From an uncultured Gammaproteobacteria bacterium (GTDB lineage: Bacteria > Patescibacteriota > Microgenomatia > UBA8517): DNA of 64,000 nucleotides. The position numbers and the translations under genes are program-made. Shown one piece after another: positions 10,265 to 26,908 of the stretch. The notes under the pieces are model-generated. The model was not told where the DNA came from. It searched no databases and saw nothing but the letters and a program-made list of their open reading frames with translations. Each line of letters opens with the position of its first letter. The stretch's first letter is position 1. Location: the NCBI GenBank assembly GCA_964600575.1, contig CAZRJH010000001.1, positions 28,651-92,650 on the forward strand, in the 5' to 3' direction.

Positions 10265-10336
10265 GGACGACTAGCTCAGTGGTAGAGCGTTCGATTCACA
10301 TTCGAAAGGTCGTTGGTCCGATCCCAACGTCGTCCA
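10265..10336 (+). tRNA. tRNA-Val (anticodon CAC)
   Basis: Manual cloverleaf: acceptor GGACGAC/GTCGTCC, D arm GCTC-AGTGGTA-GAGC, anticodon stem TTCGA/TCGAA with loop TTCACAT (anticodon CAC), T arm GTTGG-TCCGATC-CCAAC, discriminator A. CCA is not encoded. Confidence 0.8.
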
Positions 10337-10342
10337 CATTTA

Positions 10343-10371
10343 TTGTCAACAATAAAATCTGAGGTTATACT
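10343..10371 (+). promoter_or_regulatory. sigma70-like promoter upstream of the alpha-2-macroglobulin gene (TTGTCA - 17 nt - TATACT)
   Basis: 'tatTTGTCAacaataaaatctgaggtTATACTgaatttgtcGTG' ends about 9 nt before the GTG start at 10381, implying a near-leaderless transcript or a downstream real start such as the Met at 10435. Confidence 0.4.
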
Positions 10372-10380
10372 GAATTTGTC

Positions 10381-13300
10381 GTGTTTTTCCAAAAACTTTT
10401 TTTCAAGGTATTAAGTTTCCGCAATCTGGCCATAATGGCCGTATTTCTTTTCCTTATTACAGGCGGATATTTTCTGTTAGGAAAAAAAGCCCCTAAAACC
10501 GACGCGGGATATCAATCTCCGCAAATATTTATTTACGGAGGTGATAATAGTTTTTCGGCAGGCGGTTTAATTTCTTTAGCTTCAACAGACGAGCCCGCCG
10601 TTCAGATTGGTGGCTATAACATTTCGGGTAATGCAACGGTGGAAGTCTATAAGGCCAACCCGGATATGCTTTTGGACTACCTAACACACGATAAAGACGG
10701 TAAGCAGACAAAAACAAAGCCCGATGTTTCAAAACTCGAATTTGTAGGCACCACATCTCATTCAATAAATACCAACTCATACGAAGGTTCAAAAGTTAGC
10801 CTTCCTTTGGCTGAGAGCGGAGTCTGGTATCTAAAAGTTAAAATCGGCAATGTAAACGCCGACGCCTTTGTTCTACGAAGCGGATATGGGATTTTGGCTA
10901 AAGAAGGGGATAACGAATTTATTTTTTGGGGCCAGGACTTTAAAACTAAGAGGAGTATAAATGCCGGAAGTTTAAGCGTCCTAAATATGCAGGATACAAA
11001 AAAGAGTCTTTCCCAGACTAATTTTGATTCCGAAGGATTGGCAAAAGCTCCGATTACCGAAGAAGCTGATATAGCTTTTGCCCAAATTAACGACCAAATT
11101 GCAATAGTGCCTCTAAATCTCAAGTATCTAAACACGCCCTCGTATAAGTCTTATCTACAAAAAGCTCAAAATACAAATTATTTTGTGTTTACAGATAGAC
11201 CTTTGTATAAACCGGGCGACAAAGTTTATTTTAAAGCAATACTTCGAAACGACGACGATGCCAGGTATACAATCCCTTCGGGTAGTGCAAAAGTAAAGAT
11301 TTCTAGCGGATACGGCCCAGAAGAAATTAAATATGAAAAAACCTATCCTATTTCTTCCGAGGGCACGGTAGTTGGTGAGTATCAATTATCTGCCGATGCA
11401 AAAGTGGGTGGATACAGTCTGGAGATAAGCACAGGCGGGTCTAACGAAAATATTAGCTGGTCGGAGTCTCATTGGTGGAACGGATCGGTTTACTTTGATG
11501 TTGAATATTTCCAGAAACCGCAATATTTTATAGAAGTAACTTCTCCCAAAACCGAGTTGATTGCAGGGGATAAATCTACTTTTAAAATTCAGGCGAGTTA
11601 TTTTTCCGGGCAGCCTTTGGCAGGACAAAAAGTAAAATATAGAGTAGCTGCAGGCGATTATTACGATTATCAATATTACTCAGATATTAATTATCTAAGA
11701 TCTAGTCTCTCAAACGACTACAAATATTCTTATTATGGTTCCCATACTGTTTTGGAGGGTGTAACCGAACTTGATAAAAACGGTCAAAAAGAAATTACGT
11801 TCGATACAAAGATGGATTTCAATAATGGAAGAAGCCAGGTTTTTGCCATAGAGGCAACACTTGACGATAACTCCCAGACTCCCTCTTTCTCCAGACAAAA
11901 TGTTTTGGTTTATGCAGGCCAATACGGAATTTACAGATCGGACTATTCTTATGGCGGCAAAGTAAATACCGATCTCTCCATTCCTTTGCAACTTTACGCG
12001 TACGAGCCTGATGCAAATATCGCTGGTGTCCAACTAACAGCAAAAGTACACTGGGAAACATGGGAAAGTTATAACGATCCTAATCAAAAGTATCCCCAGT
12101 ACAAAAAAGTAGAACAAGACCTGTCGGAAATAAAAGGTACAACGGACTCAAAGGGTAATGTAAAGTTAAACTTTAAACCCCAAAAAGTAGGTTTTTACAC
12201 ATTTAAGATTCAAGGTACAGACGAAAAGGGTAATACTATTGGTAATACATTTTATGCATATGTCAGCGACCAAGATCAACCTGCATATACACCCCAAGGT
12301 GGAAATGAGTTAACAGTTAGTACCGATCGTGAACAATATAGTCCTGGCGATACAGTAAAACTTTCCATCTACTCCAAAACTTCGGACAGAGATGTGTTTT
12401 TAGCGATGGAGAGAGGGAGAGTTAATAGGTTTCAGATTGTTCATCTAAACGGAAACAAAGGCAGTATAGATCTGCCAATTTTAGACACGGATATTCCTAA
12501 TATGTACGCCAAAGTTTCCGCATTTTCTTCGAATGCACTCGACGGTAGCTCTGTAAATCTAAAAGTATCCACTCTAAGTAAGCGTGTTGTTGTGGGGCTT
12601 AAATTTGATAGTAAAAAATACGCTCCGGGAGATACGGTTAACGTTCAAGTTACAACAAAGGATGGATTTGGAAATCCTGTTTCTTCCGATGTTGCTCTTT
12701 GGGCCGTGGATAAGGCCATTTTTGAACTATCAGACTCAAAGTTGGGTAATATATTTAATACTTTTTGGAATGAAAGAGGTGACACCACCCAAGAGGATCA
12801 TTCATTAGAAGGAATTGTGGCATATAGCGCAGAAGGCGGCGGATGCTTCCTGTCCGGCACAAAGATTTTGATGTCAGACGGCAAAGAAAAGAATATCGAA
12901 GACGTAAAAGTCGGTGACTACGTATTAACCTATACCTCTGATTCCTCTAAGAAATTGGTCAAAGCTAAAGTTTTAGCAACTCAAAAGGCGGTTGACCCGG
13001 GTTATTTGATCATTAACGGTAATCTAAAAGTAACTCCCGATCATATAATTATGGCCAATGGAGTTTGGAGAGAAGCAGGAAGCGTGCAATTTGGCGACGA
13101 GTTGTTGTCTTCAAACGGCGATAAAGTAAAAGTTTATTCAATTGAATGGCAAAGGGGCAAAGTAGATGTTTACAATTTAACTGTAGACAAGTATCACACA
13201 TATTTTGCCAACGGACTTTATGTGCACAATCAAAAAGGGGATTCCAGAAGCACATTTAAAGACACTGCATATTGGAATCCCAGCGTTAAAACAAACTCGT

Positions 13301-15510
13301 CGGGTTTGGCAACTGTTTCGTTTAAACTCCCGGACAATCTTACAACTTGGACCGTAGCGGCCGTTGCAGATACGGCAGATACCAAAGTCGGTCAAACCAC
13401 CGAAGAAATTATTGTAACCAAAGATGTTATTGTAAGACCTATTCTTCCAAACATAATAAGGTTGGGGGACACATTAGTTGTTTCTGCTTTGGTCCAAAAC
13501 TCAACCGACTCCGACAAAAACTTCGATGTAGATCTTAAGTTTGATTCAGGAGACGTCACTACAACTTCGTTCAAAAACGTTAAAATAGCAACTAACTCAA
13601 TAGAAAGGTTTGCTTGGGAAATAAAGCCGCAAAAAGAAAACCCTAACGCAAAATTGGAAGTTACCGCACAAGTATCCGATAACGAAAAAATATCAGACGG
13701 TGTAATTTCAGAAATTCCCGTTATTCCTTTCGGATATTTTGTCACGACTTCGGAAGCCGGTGACGGCAACAAGGATTACAACATTGCTATTCCACAGAAT
13801 GTTTCTAAAGAAAAGTCAAAGTTAACACTTTCTCTTTCCCCAACAGTTTTGGGAACACTACCGACAGCGATGAAATATTTGGTTAACTATCCTTACGGTT
13901 GTACGGAACAAATCACAAGCCGATTTGTTCCGGCACTTATAGCCAAGGCAAACCCGACACTTTTTGCCGATGCGCTTAAAGACAAAGATATCGACGAGAT
14001 AATCCAAAAAGGTATAGCAAGATTAGTTGCCACTCAAAATGGGGACGGCGGTTGGACATGGTGGTTTACAGGGACATCCGATCCTTATATTAGCTCCTAT
14101 GTTGCGGAATATTTAGTTTATGCCCAAAAGCTAGGTTATAAAGTAGATAAAAATTCGTTGGACAGAGCCAGGGGTTATTTGGGATCTAAGTCCTATTACG
14201 ACTACAAACAGCAAAAAGAAATTGCATATACTGATGACGAAAAAGCAATTAAAAATTACGGCCTTGTTATTTTAGGAAACACAAAAGACATACACACTGT
14301 AAATGTTGAAAGTCTTTCTTTGGACACGCTTGCTTTAAATGTAATAACCAACTCTTCACTTGGTAATAAAAATCCCGCATCAAACGGTTTAAACAGACTA
14401 ACTTCTATGGCGCAAACCCAGGGGGACAGTGTTTACTGGGAAGCAGGTAGCAAACTTCACTTTGGATCAAAAGACGCTTCTACGGCATTTGCAATAAGAG
14501 CAATAATTGCTTCTAACGGGGATCGGGAATTGGCTGTAAAAGCCTCTAAATATTTAATCAGAAACAGAAAGTTTGAATATTGGTCCAACACTTTTGCAAC
14601 AGCACAAGTTGTAAGGGCGGTGACTGATCTATCCAAAACAGGCGGTGAATCTAACCCAAACTTCTTATACTCTGTAACACTTGATGACAAAGAGCTTGCA
14701 AATGGCCAAGTCCAAAATATAAAAGATAAGTTGCAAGATATAGATATTGATACCTCTAAAATTAACTCTAAAGGATCTAATCTAAAAGTTACCATCGAAG
14801 GCCAAGGTCAGTTATATTCCGCCTTTGTCTCTAAACTTTTCTACACCGATACAAAAGCAGACGCTGTTAAAAATGGACTTTCTATAAAACGGGAATATAT
14901 TAACGAAAAAGGAGATCAGTATCAGTTGGCGGTTGGTGATAGCGTTATCGTTAAGATAACTGCGACAGGGCCCAAAGCACCCGAAAATTATGCCGTAATC
15001 ACCGACGAACTACCTTCGGGAATGGTTCCGGTTAACCCCATGTTCAAAAACGAGCAATATGGCGAAAACCCGCTTCCGGCTTATTTTTCAAACTCTTATG
15101 TGACGGGAATGGATGTTACACAAAATGGTGCTGTCTTGTCTTTGTATCTATTGGAACCGGGAACACACACTTTTACATATAGAGCCCGAGTAGTTAGTGC
15201 CGGTAAGTTTACGGTACCCCCTGCAGAAATAAGTTTGATGTATGATCCCGCAGTAAACGCCAGAACAGAGGTGCAAACATTAACCATAGCAGAAGAATCA
15301 AAACTTATCCCGACGGCATTTATTCAGGTTATATTTAAGAAATATTTCTGGAACATAATACTTGGAGTGTTTGGTGTATCCGCACTCATTGCGATTATTG
15401 TAAAAATGAAGGGTTCGGGGTTTAAGTTGTCAGAGCTTAAATCAAAACTTTTAAAAATTTTCAAGAAAAATAAAGATATTACGCCACCGATCACTCCTGA
15501 CGTACAATGA
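10381..15510 (+). CDS. membrane-anchored alpha-2-macroglobulin family thioester protein (1709 aa) with an embedded Hint/mini-intein domain in the bait region
   Basis: Repeated MG-domain starts 'FTDRPLYKPGDKVYFKAIL', 'VSTDREQYSPGDTVKLSIYS', 'KFDSKKYAPGDTVNVQV'. A2M_N_2 hallmark 'DVALWAVDKAIFELSD'. Post-bait 'RSTFKDTAYWNPS...LPDNLTTWTVAAVA'. Thioester motif 'NYPYGCTEQITSRFVPAL' (Cys at nt 13900-13902), then 'LVATQNGDGGWTWW'. Hydrophobic N-terminal (res ~17-35) and C-terminal ('FWNIILGVFGVSALIAIIV') anchors. Confidence 0.85.
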   Translation: MFFQKLFFKVLSFRNLAIMAVFLFLITGGYFLLGKKAPKTDAGYQSPQIFIYGGDNSFSAGGLISLASTDEPAVQIGGYNISGNATVEVYKANPDMLLDYLTHDKDGKQTKTKPDVSKLEFVGTTSHSINTNSYEGSKVSLPLAESGVWYLKVKIGNVNADAFVLRSGYGILAKEGDNEFIFWGQDFKTKRSINAGSLSVLNMQDTKKSLSQTNFDSEGLAKAPITEEADIAFAQINDQIAIVPLNLKYLNTPSYKSYLQKAQNTNYFVFTDRPLYKPGDKVYFKAILRNDDDARYTIPSGSAKVKISSGYGPEEIKYEKTYPISSEGTVVGEYQLSADAKVGGYSLEISTGGSNENISWSESHWWNGSVYFDVEYFQKPQYFIEVTSPKTELIAGDKSTFKIQASYFSGQPLAGQKVKYRVAAGDYYDYQYYSDINYLRSSLSNDYKYSYYGSHTVLEGVTELDKNGQKEITFDTKMDFNNGRSQVFAIEATLDDNSQTPSFSRQNVLVYAGQYGIYRSDYSYGGKVNTDLSIPLQLYAYEPDANIAGVQLTAKVHWETWESYNDPNQKYPQYKKVEQDLSEIKGTTDSKGNVKLNFKPQKVGFYTFKIQGTDEKGNTIGNTFYAYVSDQDQPAYTPQGGNELTVSTDREQYSPGDTVKLSIYSKTSDRDVFLAMERGRVNRFQIVHLNGNKGSIDLPILDTDIPNMYAKVSAFSSNALDGSSVNLKVSTLSKRVVVGLKFDSKKYAPGDTVNVQVTTKDGFGNPVSSDVALWAVDKAIFELSDSKLGNIFNTFWNERGDTTQEDHSLEGIVAYSAEGGGCFLSGTKILMSDGKEKNIEDVKVGDYVLTYTSDSSKKLVKAKVLATQKAVDPGYLIINGNLKVTPDHIIMANGVWREAGSVQFGDELLSSNGDKVKVYSIEWQRGKVDVYNLTVDKYHTYFANGLYVHNQKGDSRSTFKDTAYWNPSVKTNSSGLATVSFKLPDNLTTWTVAAVADTADTKVGQTTEEIIVTKDVIVRPILPNIIRLGDTLVVSALVQNSTDSDKNFDVDLKFDSGDVTTTSFKNVKIATNSIERFAWEIKPQKENPNAKLEVTAQVSDNEKISDGVISEIPVIPFGYFVTTSEAGDGNKDYNIAIPQNVSKEKSKLTLSLSPTVLGTLPTAMKYLVNYPYGCTEQITSRFVPALIAKANPTLFADALKDKDIDEIIQKGIARLVATQNGDGGWTWWFTGTSDPYISSYVAEYLVYAQKLGYKVDKNSLDRARGYLGSKSYYDYKQQKEIAYTDDEKAIKNYGLVILGNTKDIHTVNVESLSLDTLALNVITNSSLGNKNPASNGLNRLTSMAQTQGDSVYWEAGSKLHFGSKDASTAFAIRAIIASNGDRELAVKASKYLIRNRKFEYWSNTFATAQVVRAVTDLSKTGGESNPNFLYSVTLDDKELANGQVQNIKDKLQDIDIDTSKINSKGSNLKVTIEGQGQLYSAFVSKLFYTDTKADAVKNGLSIKREYINEKGDQYQLAVGDSVIVKITATGPKAPENYAVITDELPSGMVPVNPMFKNEQYGENPLPAYFSNSYVTGMDVTQNGAVLSLYLLEPGTHTFTYRARVVSAGKFTVPPAEISLMYDPAVNARTEVQTLTIAEESKLIPTAFIQVIFKKYFWNIILGVFGVSALIAIIVKMKGSGFKLSELKSKLLKIFKKNKDITPPITPDVQ
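12844..13230 (+). other. Hint (intein-type) domain, 129 aa (res 822-950), no homing-endonuclease insert
   Basis: Block A 'CFLSGTKILMSDGKEKNIEDVKVGDYVLT', block B 'TPDHIIMANGVWREAGSVQFGDELL', blocks F/G 'VDVYNLTVDKYHTYFANGLYVHN'. The first residue is Cys; the last two are His-Asn; the following residue is Gln. Confidence 0.8.
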
Positions 15511-16379
15511 AAAAAGTCATCATTAAGATCGTTTTCTTAACGATAGTTTTTAGTGTACCTTTTCTTATGGTACATAAAAATGTACTGGAAATTCCCAAAG
15601 GCGAGTATAACAAAGTTCTACACTTTGATAAGGAAAGTTTTATTTTAGGAATTTCGGAAGCAGAAAAAGACGGTGGGGAATTGGAATACAAAGTAAGAGG
15701 TGGAGTGGTGCCGCATCATCTTTTGGCTAGTTCGATAATCGCTGATTTTTTTAAGAAACTATCACAAAATCCCCCCGAAACAATAATACTTTTAGGACCC
15801 AATCATTTAGAAACTGGAGATTTTAAGGCGCTAACTAATTCCAAGTCTTGGATGACGGAATACGGGGTAGTTAGGCCCGACCCAGAAATACTAAGCATTT
15901 TGCTTAAGAAAAATTTAGTAAAAATAGACGATAAAGCTGTAGAGGAAGATCAATCTATTTCGTCACCTATGACTTTTGTAGCTTTTTACCTTCCTTCAAC
16001 AAAAGTTGTGCCGATAATTCTAAGTGCAGATATGAAAGAAGAAGATATTTCAAAACTTTCGGAAGAGATTTCAAAAATAATTAAAAGCAAAAACGCAATT
16101 CTGGTTTCTTCTATCGACTTTTCGCACTATCTCAGTTTTGATCAGGCAGAGGCGCGTGACTTGGAATCTATCACCGCAATTAAAAATTTTGGTTGTAGTA
16201 AGATAATCAAATTCGATAGCGATAATATGGACTCCGCACCGGCAATGTGTACGCTTTTGTATACGATGCTTTCTTTAGGATCTACCAATATCGATATACA
16301 AACACACGAAAATTCTTACAACATTCAAAAGTCGGGTAGTGACTCCACTACTAGTTATTTTTCTATTTTTTTCCACTAA
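15507..16379 (+). CDS. MEMO1-family (AmmeMemoRadiSam system protein B-like) protein with N-terminal membrane anchor
   Basis: 'GGVVPHHLLASSI' (PHAG-like), 'ILLGPNH' (LGPSH motif), 'EEDQSISSPMTFV' (EHS..E-like), 'VSSIDFSHY'. 4-nt overlap with the A2M gene (ATGA). Confidence 0.65.
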   Translation: MKKVIIKIVFLTIVFSVPFLMVHKNVLEIPKGEYNKVLHFDKESFILGISEAEKDGGELEYKVRGGVVPHHLLASSIIADFFKKLSQNPPETIILLGPNHLETGDFKALTNSKSWMTEYGVVRPDPEILSILLKKNLVKIDDKAVEEDQSISSPMTFVAFYLPSTKVVPIILSADMKEEDISKLSEEISKIIKSKNAILVSSIDFSHYLSFDQAEARDLESITAIKNFGCSKIIKFDSDNMDSAPAMCTLLYTMLSLGSTNIDIQTHENSYNIQKSGSDSTTSYFSIFFH

Positions 16380-16406
16380 AATAAAAACAGAAGAATTCGA
16401 TAAATT

Positions 16407-17084
16407 ATGTCGGCAAGAAACTTGAAATATATATTGTTAACTATCTGGACGGCATCCATTTTGCTGGGACTATATACAATCTTTAAAAATACCCCCTTTT
16501 CCACACTCAAAACACCTCTTTCTGTTACCGGGTTGCTTCAAAGAATTTTTGGAATAACGGCATTTGTTTGTTTGTTTTACCAAATTATTTTGGGTAGTTA
16601 CATGCAGGTTTTGTCGGAAAGGGTCGGCGGATTTATTTATAAGTTTCATATTCTGCAAGGTGTGTTTGTTTATGTCCTGATTTTGTTTCACCCCGTTTTC
16701 TTTTTGATTTTTAATTACTTTGCAGGGAGAGGGGTTGATCCTTACTATGTTTTTACTCAAGTTTGTGTTTTATGCCAAAATAAGGGAGAACTATATTACT
16801 CTTTGGGTAAGGCCTCTTTCTGGATTTTAAATATTACCGTTTTTTCGGGACTTTTTAGAACAATGAATCACTTTATGAGGGTCAACTGGAAAAAGTTTCA
16901 CAATCTAAATTATTTGGTTTTTGGTCTTATTTCTATTCACGGATATTATGTGGGAAGCGATTTTGGTACTCAACCATTTTTTGGTATGGCGATGGTTTTT
17001 GTATTAATTTATCTTTATGTTTTATTGTTTAGGAAGGCCCCGGAGATGTATTTGGAGTTAAAAAACTGGTTTAGATCAAATTGA
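16407..17084 (+). CDS. ferric-reductase-like transmembrane bis-heme protein (MsrQ/YedZ/NOX-TM-like)
   Basis: Polytopic protein. 'FHILQGVFVYVLILFH' gives H-x13-H; 'FHNLNYLVFGLISIH' gives H-x12-H. These are the paired bis-histidine heme ligation spacings of ferric reductase/NOX/MsrQ TM domains. Confidence 0.55.
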   Translation: MSARNLKYILLTIWTASILLGLYTIFKNTPFSTLKTPLSVTGLLQRIFGITAFVCLFYQIILGSYMQVLSERVGGFIYKFHILQGVFVYVLILFHPVFFLIFNYFAGRGVDPYYVFTQVCVLCQNKGELYYSLGKASFWILNITVFSGLFRTMNHFMRVNWKKFHNLNYLVFGLISIHGYYVGSDFGTQPFFGMAMVFVLIYLYVLLFRKAPEMYLELKNWFRSN

Positions 17085-19129: not shown

Positions 19130-21451
19130 TCAAATATTATAGGTCTTTGAAGTGTTTCTATAGTTTAAGTCGTGGACTTTGAATGTTTTTGGCAAAAAGC
19201 CGTTCAGCTCTACCTCTTTGTAATAGGTTTTCTCTGACTTAGAAATATAGGCGACTATAAAAGTTGTATTTTGAGAGTTTGGAATAAGGCCTACAGAAAA
19301 CGAGGACTTTGGCTCGTTTATTACAAGTATTCCGTTTTCGTCTTTTTTGATCTTGCCGTTTGGGCTTTTTATCCAGAAATTGCTGGAACCTATCAAAACT
19401 AGCATAGACTCGGGCTCTTTTGGCGCTTTGCTCATATTTGAGGCAACTCTTAATAAGCCTGCATGCCCGTTAAGAAACTCCAGTATTTTTGCTTGCCCTT
19501 CGCCGGAGGAAACTAAGCCTCCGTGGTTTTGGTTGATTGTGACATTGTATGTATTGTCTATTTTGGAGCTAGACAACAAAACTGTCCCGTCACCTTGCAT
19601 GGTAGAACTTGGGTTTCCGTAAGGTTTGCCGTCTAGCCAATCTCCGCCAGACACTTCTTTAGCTGTGGGGTTTTTAACATTTAAACCGCTTGGAGTTTTA
19701 AAACCTGTTCCGGAGAGGGTCATAAAATCAACACCCCAAAAATCCTCGGCAATGTTTAAAGGCAAAAGGTTATTTTTAGCATCCATTGAAGAAACAGGCT
19801 TAAAACCTGTCTTGTTTTTAAGGTAATCAAAGGTGGGTAATACACTTTGAATTGACGGAATTTGGTTGCGAATGACAACCCTGTCAGAAGTGTTTTGAGT
19901 GTCACAATGTTTTGAATATAGCGTCAAAAAAACTTTTATTAGAAAGTTATCCTCCATAATCTCTCCACCACTCCAAGGCGGATATGCATGAACAGCTCCT
20001 TTTAATGGTGAACCTGCGGCAACAATTTTCTCTGTCTTGTTTCCTTGGTCGAATGTTAAAAAGTCCAGAGCGACAACTCCGCCTAGACTATGACCCACAA
20101 TGTTTACTTTTTCCTCCGAAGAAGTCTGTGTACCTATTAGACTTTGAAGTTGGGAGGCGGATTGTATTATCGGCTGACGAAAATCGTAGTAAAAAGGCAA
20201 AACTTGCCAACCGCCTGCGGCGAGGGATTCTATTAGCGGTTCATAAACCGACGCTGCATAAGGAGCAAGAGACCAGTTGTTGGGATTTGGATCCGGCTGA
20301 CAACTCAAAAAAGCGTTTCTGTTCCACCCGGAGCCAAACCCCGGCACAACAACAACTTTGTTTGTAATTGGGGCGGGTGTTGGCGTTGGAGTTGGCGTAG
20401 GTATTGGTGTTGATGTTGGTGTGGGGGTGGGTGTAGGAGTGTTGTCAACAAAAGAAGTTTTCCAAACATGGTTTGTGTAATTACCATTTGCAACACCTCC
20501 AATTAAAAACAGATCGTCTCCGACATTAACCAATTGACCACAACAGTTGGATTCCGGCAGACTTGGCCCGTTCGACCAAGATGTAAGCGTGCCGTCTGGG
20601 TTAATATCCGCGTAGTAAACATTGGTAGAGTCTGAGCCTGCAATTACCACCCTGTTTTGCACTCTTGTAATTCCAAATCGCCATATCCCTGTAGGCAGTG
20701 AGGACAAGCTTTCCCACGGCCCAATTGAGCCGTCCGGATTAATTAGGGCACGTATAACCTGGTTGGAATATCCTGTTGGTGTGTACCCACCAAAGACTAC
20801 CAAATAACCGTTTATAACCAACATTCCTTGGCCTTCTGTTTTTTGTGGCAGATTGCCTGCTATTCGCCATGCCCCAATTGTTCCATCGGGATTTATGTCT
20901 GATACATATATCTCACTTATTGCTACATTGGGGTTATTGGCTTGAGAAGGGATTGTGCTTCCTCCGGCGTGGAATAATTGGTTGTTGAATGATGCCGACG
21001 ATGACAAAGCAAGCTTTTGTGGAAGTGGTGTAGTGTTTGACCACCCACCAAGTGAATTGTTACTGTTTTTTGTTGCAAACGATACAGTATCCACATAAGA
21101 AATCACACCGTCAATTGAGTCTAAGAAACCTCCTAGAATATATACATCGTCGTTGCTACTCGTTGTTGTATGCCATATAAGTCTCAACGGACTGTTGGAT
21201 ATGGTCGTCCAAGGTGTGATATTGCCGCCAGAATCAATCGTATTGAGTACATCAGAGCGGCTACCTCCAAGACTGCTGGATCCACCAAAAACAAATATGC
21301 CATCTAAGTATGTGGCTGCAGTGTTGCTGGCAATTGAATACGGTAAATCTATTGCACTGGTCCAGGAGGTTAAACTAGCCTCAACAGTTGTAGGGTGAGC
21401 CAAACAAAGAAGTAAAAACAAGAATAAAAAAAGTTTTCTAAACTTGCTCAT
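19130..21451 (-). CDS. secreted multidomain protein: Kelch-type beta-propeller + Pro/Thr linker + LCAT/PGAP1-like alpha/beta-hydrolase (lipase/acyltransferase) + C-terminal domain
   Basis: Signal peptide. Kelch-like repeats 'YLDGIFVFGG', 'VYILGGF', 'YLVVFGGYTPTGY', 'LFLIGGVANGNY'. Linker 'TPTPTPTPTSTPIPTPTPTPTPAP'. Nucleophile elbow 'IVGHSLGG', acid 'GDGTV', His 'NHGGL' in LCAT-like order. Confidence 0.6.
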   Translation of the reverse strand: MSKFRKLFLFLFLLLCLAHPTTVEASLTSWTSAIDLPYSIASNTAATYLDGIFVFGGSSSLGGSRSDVLNTIDSGGNITPWTTISNSPLRLIWHTTTSSNDDVYILGGFLDSIDGVISYVDTVSFATKNSNNSLGGWSNTTPLPQKLALSSSASFNNQLFHAGGSTIPSQANNPNVAISEIYVSDINPDGTIGAWRIAGNLPQKTEGQGMLVINGYLVVFGGYTPTGYSNQVIRALINPDGSIGPWESLSSLPTGIWRFGITRVQNRVVIAGSDSTNVYYADINPDGTLTSWSNGPSLPESNCCGQLVNVGDDLFLIGGVANGNYTNHVWKTSFVDNTPTPTPTPTSTPIPTPTPTPTPAPITNKVVVVPGFGSGWNRNAFLSCQPDPNPNNWSLAPYAASVYEPLIESLAAGGWQVLPFYYDFRQPIIQSASQLQSLIGTQTSSEEKVNIVGHSLGGVVALDFLTFDQGNKTEKIVAAGSPLKGAVHAYPPWSGGEIMEDNFLIKVFLTLYSKHCDTQNTSDRVVIRNQIPSIQSVLPTFDYLKNKTGFKPVSSMDAKNNLLPLNIAEDFWGVDFMTLSGTGFKTPSGLNVKNPTAKEVSGGDWLDGKPYGNPSSTMQGDGTVLLSSSKIDNTYNVTINQNHGGLVSSGEGQAKILEFLNGHAGLLRVASNMSKAPKEPESMLVLIGSSNFWIKSPNGKIKKDENGILVINEPKSSFSVGLIPNSQNTTFIVAYISKSEKTYYKEVELNGFLPKTFKVHDLNYRNTSKTYNI

Positions 21452-21510: not shown

Positions 21511-22245
21511 ATGAAAAACAAGCTTTACGAAGAATATCATTCTAAACGGACTACTCAATTTAAAATAATTAAAGATGGCGATTACACTTACCAGACTGTT
21601 ATCGGATTTATAAACAAATATGCTAAAACTGCAAGAAAGATAATCGACATTGGGTGTGGTGTCGGCACTGTAGACTTTTATTTAGGAAGCAAGGGTAAAA
21701 AGGTCTTAGGCATTGATATATCCGGAAATGCCATACAAAAAGCAACTGAGTCTTCCTTCGTGATGGGTTTGGGAAGTACGGTAAAATTTAAAGTGTTTAA
21801 CTTTCCTCATAAAACACCAAGTGGGAAATTCGATCTAATTATTTGTACCGAATTGTTAGAGCATCTTAAAAATGATAAGTTGGCCGTAGACAAGATTCAT
21901 GGTATGGCAACTAAGGGGGGTTTGATTATTTGCTCTTCGCCTTCTAAAAACTCTTTCCTTTATAGGCTTGGTTTGCTTGAGAATTTTGACAAAAGAGTTG
22001 GGCATTTAAGAAGATACCAGCCTAATGAATTTGCTACTATGTTTAAAACATCTGGATTTAGAGTTCTTAAGATTCATAAAACTCAAGGTGTATTGAGAGA
22101 TTTTTTGTTTACGACATTCTTGGGTGGGCAATTACTGCGAGTAGTCAAACGAGAGCCATTCTCGTATGTGGTCACTAAGATTGATAATTTACTTTGTTCA
22201 GTGCTTGGCGAATCAGATATCTACATTATAGCCAAGAAAATATGA
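21511..22245 (+). CDS. class I SAM-dependent methyltransferase
   Basis: Motif I 'KIIDIGCGVGTVDFYL', motif post-I 'VLGIDIS', 'LIICTELLEHL'. Confidence 0.8.
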   Translation: MKNKLYEEYHSKRTTQFKIIKDGDYTYQTVIGFINKYAKTARKIIDIGCGVGTVDFYLGSKGKKVLGIDISGNAIQKATESSFVMGLGSTVKFKVFNFPHKTPSGKFDLIICTELLEHLKNDKLAVDKIHGMATKGGLIICSSPSKNSFLYRLGLLENFDKRVGHLRRYQPNEFATMFKTSGFRVLKIHKTQGVLRDFLFTTFLGGQLLRVVKREPFSYVVTKIDNLLCSVLGESDIYIIAKKI

Positions 22246-23135
22246 AAATTTTATTTCTTTCTAATTATTTTTATCCACACATAGGTGGGGTGGAGACACA
22301 TGCTTTAGAAATTGCAAAAATACTGGCTAAAAATGGGAATGAGGTTTCTGTTATCACGGAAAAATATAGAAGATTAGAAAAAGAAGAAATTCACCAGGGA
22401 ATAAAAATATATAGATTTACCTATCCACACACTAAATTATTTGGAATTATAAGTATCTGGTGGTGGATGTTTCAGAATAAGCATTTAATAAAAAATGTAG
22501 ATGTTGTCCAATGCCACGATGTTTTTATATGGTATTTACCCTTTAGGTTTTTGTTTCCTTTTAAAAAAGTTTATACAACTTTCCACGGATGGGAAGGTGT
22601 GTGGCCCATACCCTTTAAAAATAAATTTATCAAAAAACTTTCCTGGTTATTGTCTAAAGGCTCAATTGGGATAGGAAAATATGTGGGTAAGTATTACGGA
22701 ATAAAACCCGATTTTATTACCTACGGTGGCGTAGAAAAGATAGATTCCAAATTCAAAAAAGAAAAAGGAAGCGTTATTTTTTTGGGAAGGTTAGAAAAGG
22801 ATACGTGCGTTTTTCAATTTATAGAAGATATTAAAAATAAAAAATTCAAAAAAATTATTTTTGTCGGGGACGGCAAATACAGGACCGAATGTTCAAAATA
22901 TGGTTATGTTACGGGATATGCAAGCCCAGAAAAATATCTTAAAAAGGCCGAGTACTGCGTACCTGGTGGATATCTTAGTTATTTGGCAGCCAAGGCTTAC
23001 GGTTGTAAAATTATTACATTTGCAGACAATCCACTTAAAAAAGATTATTGGAGTGAAATAAAAAGTGTTAGAAATTTCCAAAGTTGGAACGATGTAGAAA
23101 CGGTATATGAAAAGCTTTGGAAATTGCACGACTGA
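22242..23135 (+). CDS. glycosyltransferase, GT4-like (GT-B fold)
   Basis: 'MKILFLSNYFYPHIGGVETHALEIAKILAKNGNEVSVIT' is a Glyco_trans_4-like N-terminal domain. ATGA start/stop overlap with the methyltransferase gene. Confidence 0.6.
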   Translation: MKILFLSNYFYPHIGGVETHALEIAKILAKNGNEVSVITEKYRRLEKEEIHQGIKIYRFTYPHTKLFGIISIWWWMFQNKHLIKNVDVVQCHDVFIWYLPFRFLFPFKKVYTTFHGWEGVWPIPFKNKFIKKLSWLLSKGSIGIGKYVGKYYGIKPDFITYGGVEKIDSKFKKEKGSVIFLGRLEKDTCVFQFIEDIKNKKFKKIIFVGDGKYRTECSKYGYVTGYASPEKYLKKAEYCVPGGYLSYLAAKAYGCKIITFADNPLKKDYWSEIKSVRNFQSWNDVETVYEKLWKLHD

Positions 23136-23138
23136 TCT

Positions 23139-24095
23139 ATGAAAGTTTCTGTTTGTATAACGGTTCTAAACGAGGAAGATTCTATAGTAAGACTATTGGA
23201 TGCGCTTTTTAAACAATCTTTGAAACCCGACGAAATAATAATAGTAGACGGCGGTTCCATCGACTCGACAGTTGCTCTAATCGAGTCTTATCAAAAAATA
23301 AACAAAAAATTAAAAGTAAAATTACTTAAAGAAAGATCCAGTCGCTCCAAAGGAAGAAACTTGTCGATAGAAATTGCCAAAAATAACGTTGTCGCCATTA
23401 CGGATGCCGGGTGTGTTCCACAAAAAGACTGGTTAAAAAATATCGTTAGACCTTTCCAAAACAAAGCAGATGTTTCCGTAGGCTTCTATAAAATGTCCTA
23501 CAAAAACAGTTTTCAAAAAGCCGAATCTTTATATTTGGGAGTTTTGCCAAAAAATTTTGATGCTAACTTTTTACCTTCGACTAGATCCGTTGCTTTTACA
23601 AAAAAAGTTTGGGAAGAAGTAGGGGGTTTCCCCGAAAATCTTGGGGGAACAGCCGAGGATACTGTTTTTAATTTAAAACTATTAAACAATAACTCACACT
23701 TATCACGCGTGAAAAATGCGGTAGTAGAGTGGGGGATGCCAAAGAATTTATCGGAGTTTTATCTAAAAATATTTAATTATGCAAAAGGCGACGCCGAAAC
23801 TCGAATCATATTTTTTCCTGGAAAAGGGTTTATGTCGCACAATATTAAAGCACTGTTTGTAATAACTAGATATTTAGTTGCAATCTGGGTTTCTATTTTA
23901 TTGTTACCATATAACCTCTCCCCCATCATTCTGGTTTTGATTTTTGTTTATTGTTTCTGGGCTTATAGAAAACTTTTTAAGGCTTTTGAGGAAAATAAAA
24001 CCGCTATCTGGGGGCCTGTTTTACAAATTACGGCTGACCTTGGGGTTATTTTTGGCTTCATAAACGGGTTCGCTGCAAAAAAAATCCGGAAGTGA
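23139..24095 (+). CDS. glycosyltransferase family 2 with C-terminal TM segments
   Basis: 'VSVCITVLNEEDSIVRLLDALFKQSLKPDEIIIVDGGSIDST', 'ITDAGCV'. Confidence 0.8.
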   Translation: MKVSVCITVLNEEDSIVRLLDALFKQSLKPDEIIIVDGGSIDSTVALIESYQKINKKLKVKLLKERSSRSKGRNLSIEIAKNNVVAITDAGCVPQKDWLKNIVRPFQNKADVSVGFYKMSYKNSFQKAESLYLGVLPKNFDANFLPSTRSVAFTKKVWEEVGGFPENLGGTAEDTVFNLKLLNNNSHLSRVKNAVVEWGMPKNLSEFYLKIFNYAKGDAETRIIFFPGKGFMSHNIKALFVITRYLVAIWVSILLLPYNLSPIILVLIFVYCFWAYRKLFKAFEENKTAIWGPVLQITADLGVIFGFINGFAAKKIRK

Positions 24096-24097
24096 GA

Positions 24098-24117
24098 CTT
24101 TTACCTGTTGGTAAAAG
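24098..24117. terminator. hairpin between convergent genes (CTTTTACC-tgtt-GGTAAAAG); a second nested palindrome 'GAGTG..TTCCGGAA..CACTC' follows
   Basis: Read directly, between stops 24095 (+) and 24157 (-). Confidence 0.4.
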
Positions 24118-24156
24118 GAGTGCTTCCGGAAAGGCTTTTGGCCACTCTTTCACTGA

Positions 24157-24378
24157 CTAGTCAGCACCGTCGAACTCGGGAATAAAAAGATCCGTGTCCG
24201 AAACCGTAAAGGTTAGAATCGAGCCGTCCCTGGCAACAAGTGAGAACTTAAATGGGTGCTCGTTCAGGTCTGCTCCGACTGCCGGAGTGATGATGTTTCT
24301 GACTTCGTAAACAGTCTTAAAAGCGGACAAAAGCGCCCCAAAGGCGGCTATCTTGTCGGGGGTGTTCAATCTTGGCAT
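24157..24378 (-). CDS. hypothetical small protein
   Basis: 73-aa ORF, co-oriented and 2 nt from the next small ORF; no recognisable motif. Confidence 0.3.
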   Translation of the reverse strand: MPRLNTPDKIAAFGALLSAFKTVYEVRNIITPAVGADLNEHPFKFSLVARDGSILTFTVSDTDLFIPEFDGAD

Positions 24379-24379
24379 G

Positions 24380-24565
24380 CTATCTCCAAATAGGTAACCC
24401 TAAAAGGGTTCCGAATATCGCCAGAAAGCTTATGTACAGGAATACAAACAAAAGGAAGACGAATGTTATCGCACACTTTTGAATGTATCCAACATCAAGC
24501 GAGTTTAAGGCGGAGCTCAAAAGGGCCATCATAGATATCAAAAGTGACATCTGCAGGATAAACAT
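24380..24565 (-). CDS. hypothetical small membrane protein (2 TM)
   Basis: 61-aa hydrophobic ORF. Confidence 0.3.
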   Translation of the reverse strand: MFILQMSLLISMMALLSSALNSLDVGYIQKCAITFVFLLFVFLYISFLAIFGTLLGLPIWR

Positions 24566-24677
24566 CTCTCCTCCGTGTGGCTAAAAAGTAAAGTGCAAGG
24601 TTCTATTGTACTAAATTGATTACAATAATCAAATTATAGGGTATATATTGAATTTTTGTTTGGAGTAAAATAAACCT

Positions 24678-25913
24678 GTGGGATATATAAAAGAGGCAGT
24701 CAGGGGTGTTAGCTGGATGAGTCTTTTTAGATTTGTCTACCGACTTGTTGGTGTTTTAAGAATAGCGATTTTGGCTCACATTCTTTCTCCCGGTGATTTG
24801 GGTACATTTGGTGTGGTTGCGGTGGTCTTGGCATTTTTAGAAATAATTACAGAAACGGGAATAAATATATTTTTAATACAACAAAAAGAAAACATGCATT
24901 CTTATATTGATACCGCCTGGTTTGTTTCGATAGTTAGGGGTTTGTTAATTTCTTTGTTAGTTGTAGTTTTGGCAAAGCCGATTTCTTTGTTTTTTAAGTC
25001 AGACCCGTCGCTACCGCTTTTGTATTGGGCAGCCCTGGTCCCTTTTATAAGAGGGTTTATAAATCCATCCATTGTTAAGTTTCAAAAGGACTTGGAATTT
25101 AACAAAGAATTTTTATATAGAATTTCCGTTTTTTTGGTAGAGTCAATCGTTTCTGTTGTCGGGGTTGTGATTCAACAAACTCCATTTGCACTTGTTTTGG
25201 GGTTATTGGTCGGTGCGGTTTACGAAGTGATTCTTACTTTTTTGGTTGCCCGTCCATGGCCCAAGTTTAAATTTGAAGCCGAAAAAACCAAAAAAATAAT
25301 AGACCGAGGAAAATGGGTAACGCTTTTTGGCGTTTTTGATTATTTATACACCCAAAGCGACAACATAATTGTGGGTCGACTTTTGGGAGTAAACACACTC
25401 GGTATATATCAAAATGCATATAAAATTTCGACTGCTCCACTAACGGAAGTTGGGGATGTATTTTTTAGAGTTACATTTCCAGTATTTTCAAAAATTTCGG
25501 AGGACTCCAAAAGATTAAAAACAGCATTTATTCAAAATACAGTTATCAACGCAAGTTTGATGATACCTGCGGGTGTTCTGATATACATTTTTGCCGACCT
25601 AATAGTCAAGATTCTTTTGGGTCCGGGTTGGGAAGAAGCAATCCCAGTTACAAAACTTCTTTCGGTTCTGGGTATAGTTCGCGGAATTGCATCGTCTACC
25701 AACTCGCTTCTGGTTGCAAAAGGACTGCAAAAATATTCCGCTATCGTAACAATCGCAAGTACACTCGGCATGTGGTTAACAATTGTGCCCTTAACAAAAA
25801 CTTATGGTATTATTGGAGCCGGAAGCGCTGCAATAATCGGCACTTTGGTTTCTGTCCCGCTAACTATTTATTTTGTTAGAAAAACCCTCAAGACGATAAG
25901 CCTTCCGGTTTAA
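24678..25913 (+). CDS. oligosaccharide flippase, Wzx-like (MOP superfamily polysaccharide biosynthesis protein)
   Basis: About 12 TM helices; layout typical of Polysacc_synt/Wzx. Real start may be an internal Met. Confidence 0.65.
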   Translation: MGYIKEAVRGVSWMSLFRFVYRLVGVLRIAILAHILSPGDLGTFGVVAVVLAFLEIITETGINIFLIQQKENMHSYIDTAWFVSIVRGLLISLLVVVLAKPISLFFKSDPSLPLLYWAALVPFIRGFINPSIVKFQKDLEFNKEFLYRISVFLVESIVSVVGVVIQQTPFALVLGLLVGAVYEVILTFLVARPWPKFKFEAEKTKKIIDRGKWVTLFGVFDYLYTQSDNIIVGRLLGVNTLGIYQNAYKISTAPLTEVGDVFFRVTFPVFSKISEDSKRLKTAFIQNTVINASLMIPAGVLIYIFADLIVKILLGPGWEEAIPVTKLLSVLGIVRGIASSTNSLLVAKGLQKYSAIVTIASTLGMWLTIVPLTKTYGIIGAGSAAIIGTLVSVPLTIYFVRKTLKTISLPV

Positions 25914-26908
25914 TGAAGAGCGTATTCACGAACAAAAAAATTTTAATAACAGGCGGAACCGGATCTTTTGGATCATATTTTGTTAAAGAGATTTTAAAAC
26001 TCGACCCAAAACTGATAATTATTTTCTCCAGAGATGAAGACAAACAGTATTCTATGCAATTTGAATTTTCTAAATATAGAAATAAATTGGTTTTTGTTTT
26101 GGGAGATGTTAGAGATGTTAACAGTCTTAAAAAGGCTTTTGAATATATGCCCGATTTTGTGATACACGCGGCGGCTTTAAAACAAATACCTTCGTCTGAA
26201 TATAATATTTTTGAGACTGTCAAAACAAATGTTTTGGGTGCCCAGAACATTGTAGAACTGTGTAAAACAGGTAAAGTTAAAAAAGTTTTATCAATAAGTA
26301 CGGACAAAGCAGTTGAGCCGGTAAATGTAATGGGAATGACCAAGGCTCTTCAGGAAAGAATTTTTACATTAGCAAACAGAAACTCGAAAACAAAGTTTGC
26401 ATCGGTCAGATATGGAAATGTCATTAATTCTCGAGGATCGATAATTCCTCTTTTTAAAAAACAGATTGCTGCCGGCGGTCCGATAACAATAACGGATTTA
26501 CAAATGACTCGTTTTATTCTAACCCTAAGACAGACCATAGGGCTGGTTACGTTTGCATTCGAAAATATGAACGGCGGCGAAATATTTGTACCAAATGTAA
26601 AAGCCCTAAAAATATCAGATCTCGGTTCTGTTATGGTAAATGCGCTAAAATCAAAAAACAAAAAAATAATAGAAGTTGGTGTTAGGCCTGGCGAAAAGTT
26701 GCATGAAACTTTAATTTCCAGGCCGGAATCTTTAAGAGTTATAAAATCAAAAAGTTTTTACACTATTCTTCCCCAGATAGAACTCGGAAAGGTTACCAAA
26801 AACGGGAGCTATTCTAAAAACAAGTCTTTTGTTTTTGCATCGCAAGATACACAGCTTTTTAAACCCGAAGAAATAAAAGAAATGTTAATTAAAGAGGATA
26901 TTATTTAA
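25913..26908 (+). CDS. UDP-sugar 4,6-dehydratase, PseB/CapD-like (Polysacc_synt_2)
   Basis: 'KKILITGGTGSFGSYFVKEIL', 'IIFSRDEDKQ', 'VIHAAALKQIP', 'STDKAVEPVNVMGMTKAL'. Confidence 0.75.
   Translation: MKSVFTNKKILITGGTGSFGSYFVKEILKLDPKLIIIFSRDEDKQYSMQFEFSKYRNKLVFVLGDVRDVNSLKKAFEYMPDFVIHAAALKQIPSSEYNIFETVKTNVLGAQNIVELCKTGKVKKVLSISTDKAVEPVNVMGMTKALQERIFTLANRNSKTKFASVRYGNVINSRGSIIPLFKKQIAAGGPITITDLQMTRFILTLRQTIGLVTFAFENMNGGEIFVPNVKALKISDLGSVMVNALKSKNKKIIEVGVRPGEKLHETLISRPESLRVIKSKSFYTILPQIELGKVTKNGSYSKNKSFVFASQDTQLFKPEEIKEMLIKEDII

Follow-up and report, generated by a model that had tools for sequence, protein, structure and literature searches.

The 64,000-nt stretch of contig CAZRJH010000001.1 analysed here (the window, to the whole of which all coordinates refer) harbors three consecutive genes on the same strand, encoding a macroglobulin of the thioester type (A2M, gene 1), a Memo-family protein with an N-terminal anchor (gene 2) and a six-helix membrane protein of the ferric-reductase superfamily (gene 3), as listed in Table 1. 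Genes 1 and 2 overlap by 4 nt (ATGA, in caATGAaa), with the start codon of Memo overlapping the stop codon of A2M, an arrangement by which Memo is predicted to be translationally coupled to the A2M gene, and genes 2 and 3 are separated by 27 nt. An earlier sequence-only reading of this DNA had reported the three genes with this overlap and this gap, and both the coordinates and the motifs (VVPHH, LGPNH and DFSHY in Memo, GCTEQ in A2M and the histidine pairs of gene 3) were confirmed, while the identities assigned to the three products hold by Pfam, NCBIfam, family profile and fold. It had also remarked that the usual Pbp1C partner of A2M is missing, and indeed neither the window nor any examined locus has a Pbp1C or transglycosylase gene adjoining A2M.

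Conservation of the A2M-Memo pair

The real unit at this locus is a two-gene module, an A2M-like gene followed by Memo, which both Patescibacteria and Bacillota have conserved. A scan with Memo over single genomes of each GTDB species gave 451 relatives, and the best 80 loci were kept, 72 of which had at least 1 kb of upstream sequence and are used for the counts (loci with L numbers are fetched comparison loci; their open reading frames, ORFs, are our own greedy calls, and taxa are given by record names, several of which appear unreliable for metagenome-assembled genomes, MAGs). An A2M-like gene of about 1650 aa lies immediately 5' of Memo on the same strand in 67 of the 72 loci, with the 4-nt overlap in 24 of the 67, and chance adjacency of the two genes is ruled out by these independent species-level loci. 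The five exceptions exhibit a small ORF between the two genes, ORF calls that overlap, or an upstream gene of 1628 aa so divergent that the A2M profiles did not recognise it, and all five likewise have a large upstream gene. The hosts by record title comprise many Patescibacteria lineages as well as Bacillota, such as Clostridia, Tepidanaerobacter, Petroclostridium sp. X23 and Clostridium thermobutyricum. The same order was observed in ten metagenome or MAG contexts, where all eight distinct Patescibacteria ones display a Hint-bearing A2M followed by Memo, and a Clostridia MAG context shows an A2M-like gene, a small beta-helix gene and then Memo; in the reverse direction, Memo was found next to A2M in both loci selected by A2M (2/2). 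No gene except the A2M-like one is conserved with Memo across both phyla. Conservation of the neighbourhood in relatives, the test that the sequence-only reading had set itself, is seen for A2M and Memo and not for the ferric-reductase-like gene (0/42 loci of its own family, described below).

Different domain contents were observed for the 58 full-length partners of Memo: 20 carry both a Hint domain and the CxEQ thioester motif, 3 carry CxEQ only, 3 Hint only and 32 neither, and every one of the 58 is followed by Memo. The 32 partners with neither feature are all of the Bacillota type and also lack a C-terminal anchor; CxEQ is kept in 23 of the 26 partners from candidate phyla radiation (CPR) lineages, these being the ones with Hint and/or CxEQ. 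Since Memo is retained with partners that have neither thioester nor Hint, it is not a repair device for either, and these 32 of 58 proteins speak against the proposal of a redox module that regulates or repairs the thioester or Hint chemistry. The role of Memo must instead concern a feature common to all these macroglobulin (MG)-domain proteins, and not the thioester or the Hint cysteine.

Table 1. Features of the window, with lineage-specific genes of three comparison loci in the last row
Feature	Position	Strand	Basis or remark
tRNA-Val(CAC)	10265..10337	+	ARAGORN and Rfam; directly 5' of the A2M-Memo operon
Promoter-like site TTGTCA-17-TATACT	10343..10371	+	10/12 consensus matches; consensus match only
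A2M, thioester type, 1709 aa (gene 1)	10381..15510	+	ORF and Pfam
Bait-region domain (BRD) of A2M, aa 644-783	12310..12729	+	PF07703, 1.9e-19; aligns to YfhM residues 722-882
Hint domain of A2M, bacterial-intein-like (BIL) type, aa 822-950, 129 aa	12844..13230	+	PT-HINT, 4.9e-13
Thioester motif GCTEQ in TED of A2M, aa 1173-1177	13897..13911	+	motif in sequence
Bacterial MG10 domain of A2M, aa 1499-1623	14875..15249	+	PF17973, 5.8e-23
Memo-family protein, 290 aa, N-terminal anchor aa 4-22 (gene 2)	15507..16379	+	Pfam PF01875, NCBIfam
Six-helix ferric-reductase-superfamily membrane protein, 225 aa (gene 3)	16407..17084	+	Pfam, model
Three ORFs of about 180-200 aa	17133-19133	-	no Pfam match
Large protein with Kelch/PQQ-type beta-propeller and LCAT/PGAP1-like lipase domain	19130-21451	-	
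Surface-glycan set: methyltransferase, GT4 and GT2 glycosyltransferases, Polysacc_synt flippase, epimerase	21511-26908	+	
Lineage-specific genes 5' of A2M	L004 4237-4893; L008 1942-2664; L173 605-1765 and 3023-3553		

Domains of the A2M and Memo proteins

The product of gene 1 matches the Pfam families MG2, A2M_BRD, PT-HINT/intein, A2M, TED (TED_complement) and bMG10, with MG2, A2M_BRD, A2M, TED_complement and bMG10 each exceeding the Pfam cutoffs, and by this domain content together with the CxEQ motif it is a putative thioester protein. Transmembrane (TM) helices are predicted at the N-terminus (aa 15-33) and at the C-terminus (aa 1657-1674, followed by a basic Pro-rich tail), so that both ends of the protein are expected to sit in the membrane and its bulk outside. 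The A2M of the window is thereby placed on the surface of a Patescibacteria-like cell with a single membrane; the G+C content near 0.40 and the flanks, which comprise an isoleucyl/valyl-type tRNA synthetase, FtsW/RodA, L21, L27 and ParB, with an S26 signal peptidase on the opposite strand, are in keeping with a small genome of that kind. The A2M is split into two or three ORFs in several MAGs (L024 3498-8772, L173 3771-8742 and L023 1223-6309), for which frameshifts, pseudogenes or assembly errors are possible explanations.

The segment of A2M between the bait-region domain and the TED carries the Hint domain, on which the intein C-terminal motif model also scores above cutoff. The segment preceding it aligns to the BRD of E. 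coli YfhM and the segment following it to complement C5 residues 764-859, indicating that Hint occupies the bait/anaphylatoxin position. These C5 residues lie just past what we take to be the end of C5a. The domain begins at GGG/CFLSGT, where Cys1 follows a Gly, harbors the block B motif TxxH as TPDH and ends at VHN/QK. The residue after the His-Asn is Gln in the window and Q, D, E, N or G in other proteins, never C, S or T, as read in 8 aligned orthologues and in 23 Hint-bearing proteins from species-level loci; a canonical (class 1) splicing intein is ruled out, the +1 residue never being a Cys, Ser or Thr nucleophile. Among solved structures the nearest is the BIL domain 2LWY (1.8e-10), and the Hint modules of secreted toxins come next. 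Three features define the A type of BIL domain, namely a His-Asn at its end, the absence of a C-flanking nucleophile and autocleavage (PMC7765530). The Hint of the window exhibits Cys1, TxxH and a terminal His-Asn within 129 aa, lacks a homing endonuclease and resides in a secreted protein. Orthologues devoid of Hint display a clean empty site, in which a Gly-rich linker of about 10 residues (AEGGGG…) leads into the conserved R..FKDTAYWNP, and among Patescibacteria two distinct A2M-like subtypes carry the domain at this one site, with others cleanly lacking it. No protease-accessible bait was seen in either form, as Hint fills the bait position in the one and the short Gly-rich linker alone is present in the other. 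Hint is predicted to be a self-processing domain at the bait position, with cutting and splicing fitting its sequence equally. Some BIL domains are said, in the work of Dassa et al. 2004, to splice without a +1 nucleophile.

The Memo protein scores far above the family cutoffs (98 bits against 27 for Pfam; 102 bits against 26 for TIGR04336), and its N-terminal hydrophobic anchor is preceded by lysines, from which the catalytic domain is predicted to lie outside the cell; this anchor is present in 75/76 members of the Memo clade. A profile of 26 Memo relatives matches the human MEMO1 structures, pairing the His of PHH with His49, that of GPNH with His81, and DFSHY with Asp189/His192, so that His70 and His100 of the window protein are the equivalents of the iron/copper ligands H49 and H81. 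The metal ligands of MEMO1 are His49, His81 and Cys244 (PMC11081632). The third ligand, Cys244, is aligned with D242, in an alignment whose human sequence was compared with the PDB over residues 41-195 and agrees there. The residues H70, H100, D204, S206, H207 and D242 are invariant in 81/81 Memo-clade sequences, and on the outer side of the membrane the clade exhibits a putative 2-His-1-carboxylate site of the kind present in LigB-type dioxygenases. Human MEMO1 has shown no enzymatic activity, and the literature still gives the primary molecular function of the Memo family as unknown (PMC11081632).

Relatives of this protein are already entered as 'AmmeMemoRadiSam system protein B' in some NCBI and JGI records, a name that pipelines based on TIGR04336 would also assign. 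The annotated neighbours in the ten metagenome contexts and in the window, the rest of which was not scanned for these families, include neither AMMECR1 nor a dedicated radical-SAM gene, and the label is therefore misleading for this clade; the only radical-SAM gene noted near Memo is MiaB-like, about 4 kb away on the opposite strand in L008.

The ferric-reductase-like gene and other neighbours

Gene 3 itself scores 24.6 bits with Ferric_reduct (PF01794), under the cutoff of 28, although 52 of 73 aligned family members match this model at E<0.01 (best 1.2e-9). Of the two profile searches proposed by the sequence-only reading, the one with Memo was positive outright, and the one with Ferric_reduct fell just short of its cutoff for gene 3. 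A word-index search found 4 relatives of gene 3, and an exhaustive HMMER profile search found 491 cluster representatives; with four histidines conserved, these representatives rule out a misannotated gene. The heme-type pairs are H81-x13-H95 in helix 3 and H165-x12-H178 in helix 5, each of the four being at least 90% conserved across the 73 relatives, and their expected location within predicted TM helices 3 and 5 was verified. In an AlphaFold (AF2) model built on the 73-sequence alignment (pLDDT 97.4), which replaced an earlier one from 4 sequences (pLDDT 63.7), the pairs fall inside helices 76-105 and 161-182, and the top PDB folds by Foldseek are the NOX5 TM domain, STEAP1, DUOX1 and NOX2, with probabilities of 0.96-1.00, TM-scores of about 0.42-0.58 and weak E-values (0.037 at best). 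The model and the conserved histidines point to a genuine bis-heme-type protein, for which the ferric-reductase identity holds at the superfamily level. The MsrQ equivalog model gives 16 bits against a cutoff of 130, and no molybdoprotein was present in the annotated recurrent neighbour clusters. A CxxC (aa 120-123, C120/C123; 16764-16775) was also observed in the loop that joins helices 3 and 4 and is predicted to lie on the outer side; at least 90% of the 14 sequences of the close subfamily keep it, but the wider family does not.

The association of gene 3 with the pair is confined to a few genomes. Besides the window, only L014/L018 (60% identity) and L003 (49%) have it after A2M-Memo, with gaps of 15 and 43 nt after Memo in these two relatives, and it is missing beside A2M-Memo in 79/80 genome loci (the exception, L018, being the genome of L014) and in most of the metagenome contexts. 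The L017 copy (50% identity) stands beside the signal peptidase with no A2M-Memo between. A metagenome scan with the gene 3 family gave 75 loci, 42 of them with at least 1.5 kb upstream, and neither Memo nor A2M was present within about 8 kb of gene 3 in any of these 42 informative loci, which include orthologues at 55-58% identity, closer than the 49% of L003. The recurrent neighbours of the family are FtsW, L21, L27, ParB, the S26 signal peptidase, an IMPDH-like gene and the beta-propeller/LCAT-like lipase, most of which also flank it in the window. Gene 3 as a conserved third component is ruled out by the 42 family loci and by its lack in nearly all A2M-Memo loci; nothing indicates a function shared with the pair, and it is a local neighbour only. 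Most simply, gene 3 was already resident in this lineage when A2M-Memo and the tRNA became placed 5' of it.

Various further genes were observed around the family and around the operon. A gene related to that of the beta-propeller/LCAT-like lipase recurs 3' of gene 3 in 30/75 metagenome loci, and an IMPDH/GMP-reductase-like gene lies divergently about 230 nt 5' of it in 31/75 loci (L098-L172; for instance L123 3879-5516, minus strand), a place where the window has no such gene. In L001 and L014 the position of the three unmatched ORFs of the window is taken by unannotated ORFs of about 180 aa, the beta-propeller/lipase protein is also present in L105 (7477-9876, minus strand), and the surface-glycan set downstream of the operon is also kept in the relatives L001, L003 and L014. 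The promoter-like site begins at most 6 nt past tRNA-Val(CAC) and ends about 10 nt 5' of the GTG start of A2M, a proximity that implies either a very short leader or an alternative A2M start, the ATG at 10435; the total count of such sites in the region is not above that of shuffled sequence.

A CapA-like PGA_cap gene adjoins or lies near A2M-Memo in about ten Patescibacteria loci, with none in the window, and Memo-PGA_cap fusions occur in single ORFs in L030 (2170-3993, 607 aa) and L071 (5036-6805, 589 aa). Because such fusions occur, they suggest that Memo and this metallophosphatase-fold enzyme act on the same substrate. Against a model of the peptide-modifying epimerase MslH, the PGA_cap proteins reach 70 bits with a cutoff of 700, a superfamily-level similarity only. 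PGA_cap as a universal third component was rejected, being found in only those ten or so Patescibacteria loci and in no Bacillota locus by a three-sequence CPR-derived model. In 19 Bacillota loci (including L032 10945-12231) an EPSP-synthase/MurA-family gene lies about 130 nt 3' of Memo in the same orientation, and beyond it comes an HtrA-like protease gene in the reverse orientation; these and other recurrent Bacillota neighbours, such as DUF218, were considered as partners and rejected, as they look like the synteny of one subclade. LytR and glycosyltransferase genes are further envelope genes near several loci. The envelope and proteolysis genes just 5' of A2M vary by lineage, including a rhomboid protease, a sortase, a trypsin-like protease and an AhpC/redoxin gene, none of which is conserved.

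Possible functions and comparison with known systems

The explanation that fits best overall, and which is considered reasonably probable, is a two-gene A2M-like/Memo module in which Memo is a dedicated partner, Hint processes itself and gene 3 is a bystander. Memo would bind the A2M-like scaffold at the membrane, probably 1:1, and would act on it as a metal-dependent maturation or processing (or stabilising) enzyme, by a logic that may be likened to that of MagB and other Mag proteins stabilising the type II A2M MagD. In some Patescibacteria it would be joined by, or fused to, the CapA-like metallophosphatase-fold enzyme; in the Hint forms, autoproteolysis or excision at the bait position would replace an outside protease, converting A2M to a two-chain or activated form; and gene 3 may be co-transcribed here as no component of the system. 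Several points weigh against this explanation. The adjacency was sampled mostly through Memo-selected loci, with a reverse test of n=2; Hint may simply excise itself, leaving an ordinary linker; gene 3 is probably co-transcribed with the pair here and in two relatives, the 27-nt gap being without a convincing terminator; and a lineage-specific functional recruitment of gene 3 is possible.

The sequence-only reading had instead proposed that the bis-heme protein passes electrons across the membrane to a redox Memo, which would regulate or repair the A2M thioester or the Hint cysteine. The single strand with its 4-nt overlap and 27-nt gap, the same trio in the relatives L014 and L003, the four conserved heme-type histidines in helices 3 and 5 of a fold matching the NOX5, STEAP and DUOX TM domains, and the intact putative metal site of Memo would all suit such a conduit, which is nevertheless very improbable, because gene 3 is no conserved partner: it is missing in 79 of the 80 genome loci, Memo and A2M are missing from all 42 informative loci of its family, even those of 55-58% identity orthologues, in L017 it stands at the signal peptidase without the pair, and Memo pairs equally well with partners lacking both thioester and Hint. 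As a conserved system, the electron conduit is largely refuted. A redox role of Memo is hypothetical, and an oxygen-dependent or electron-fed one looks unlikely, since many of the hosts (Clostridia-type Bacillota and groundwater Patescibacteria) are mostly anaerobes and no electron-transfer partner is conserved.

Two other readings keep the pair and change the part played by Memo. Memo, with PGA_cap where present, and the A2M-like protein may act jointly on a third surface molecule, for instance a polymer of the envelope or a foreign protein that has been captured, with the A2M-like protein as scaffold or trap and Memo as the enzyme. Such a reading, although unlikely, would accommodate the invariance of the putative Memo active site across two phyla, the fusions and adjacency with PGA_cap, the weak similarity of the latter to the MslH epimerase model (70 against 700 bits) and the envelope genes nearby (sortase, rhomboid protease, LytR, glycosyltransferases, and EPSP-synthase/MurA 3' in the 19 Bacillota loci), yet only the A2M-like partner is conserved in both phyla and the envelope neighbours differ from lineage to lineage. 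Memo may otherwise be a non-catalytic tether or stabiliser of the A2M-like protein, with a structural or a metal/redox-sensing metal site, which is judged somewhat less likely still. In its favour, Memo resembles MagB in having one N-terminal TM helix, and MagB forms a 1:1 complex with MagD, which depends on it for stability and for its place at the membrane (PMC5764988); equal amounts of the two products are suggested by the translational coupling, and human MEMO1 is without known enzymatic activity (PMC11081632); the A2M-like proteins nevertheless have membrane anchors of their own, and a His-His-Asp set with Asp204, Ser206 and His207 invariant in 81/81 sequences is more typical of catalysis. 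A bolder form of the favoured two-gene explanation, to which a similarly small probability is given, is an ancient enzyme-substrate or enzyme-scaffold system of monoderm bacteria that reveals the function of Memo as metal-dependent processing of MG-domain/thioester proteins, together with a Patescibacteria 'harpoon' in which Hint stands in for the bait. If true, the exchange of bait for Hint would yield a protease-independent, self-arming thioester 'harpoon' on epibiotic cells, used for instance for covalent attachment to a host or as a pre-armed protease trap.

Two types of bacterial A2M operon have been described, both Gram-negative, one with a thioester A2M and PBP1c and the other with a thioester-less A2M and mag genes (PMC5764988). 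A2M-Memo would be a third type, monoderm, confined so far to Patescibacteria and Bacillota, with a single invariant partner and, in one branch, a self-processing bait. The conserved module provides the Memo family with a concrete candidate partner or substrate, a question that isolate genomes by record title, such as Petroclostridium sp. X23 and Tepidanaerobacter sp. GT38, would make testable, and Hint at the bait/anaphylatoxin position suggests processing of a thioester protein without an outside protease. The literature search returned no paper linking Hint domains with bacterial macroglobulins and none linking Memo with macroglobulins, although Burroughs et al. 2019 (J Biol Chem 294:10211), reportedly the main survey of Memo gene contexts, lay outside the search and an earlier mention is possible.

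Among known systems, the type I A2Ms (E. coli YfhM/ECAM and Salmonella Sa-A2M, in an operon with PBP1c) share with the window protein the MG array, the BRD, the A2M domain, a TED with CxEQ and the bacterial MG10, as well as tethering to the membrane at the outer face of the cytoplasmic membrane. They differ in that here no Pbp1C adjoins, the partner is Memo, the host is a monoderm, TM anchors at both ends replace the lipoprotein anchor, and the bait is replaced by Hint, or by the Gly-rich linker of about 10 residues in the Hint-less forms. The type II A2M (P. aeruginosa MagD, six-gene mag operon) resembles the module in its operon-encoded accessory proteins, including the single-TM MagB at 1:1 (PMC5764988), and the Bacillota A2M-like versions are likewise without a thioester. 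Here, by contrast, there is one conserved accessory, a Memo-family protein, and the host phyla are others. The Mag proteins are not known to be Memo-like. Gene 3 shares with the ferric-reductase superfamily (NOX5 TM, STEAP, MsrQ/YedZ) the six helices and the two His pairs (H-x13-H in helix 3, H-x12-H in helix 5), whose x13/x12 spacing is that of the NOX/FRE bis-heme motif, but it is a stand-alone protein for which neither an NAD/FAD domain nor an MsrP-like partner was seen. The Memo protein resembles MEMO1 and AmmeMemoRadiSam protein B (PF01875, TIGR04336) in scoring well above cutoff and in the invariant equivalents of H49, H81, D189 and H192, and differs from MEMO1 in being membrane-anchored and extracytoplasmic, in its A2M-like partner and, by alignment, in an Asp in place of the third ligand Cys244. 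The Hint domain, finally, is like those of A-type BIL and Hedgehog proteins in its Cys1 after Gly, TxxH, terminal His-Asn, lack of a +1 nucleophile and secreted carrier; whereas BIL domains typically occur in hypervariable regions of non-conserved proteins, the domain here lies, in many Patescibacteria lineages, at one and the same orthologous position of a conserved protein.

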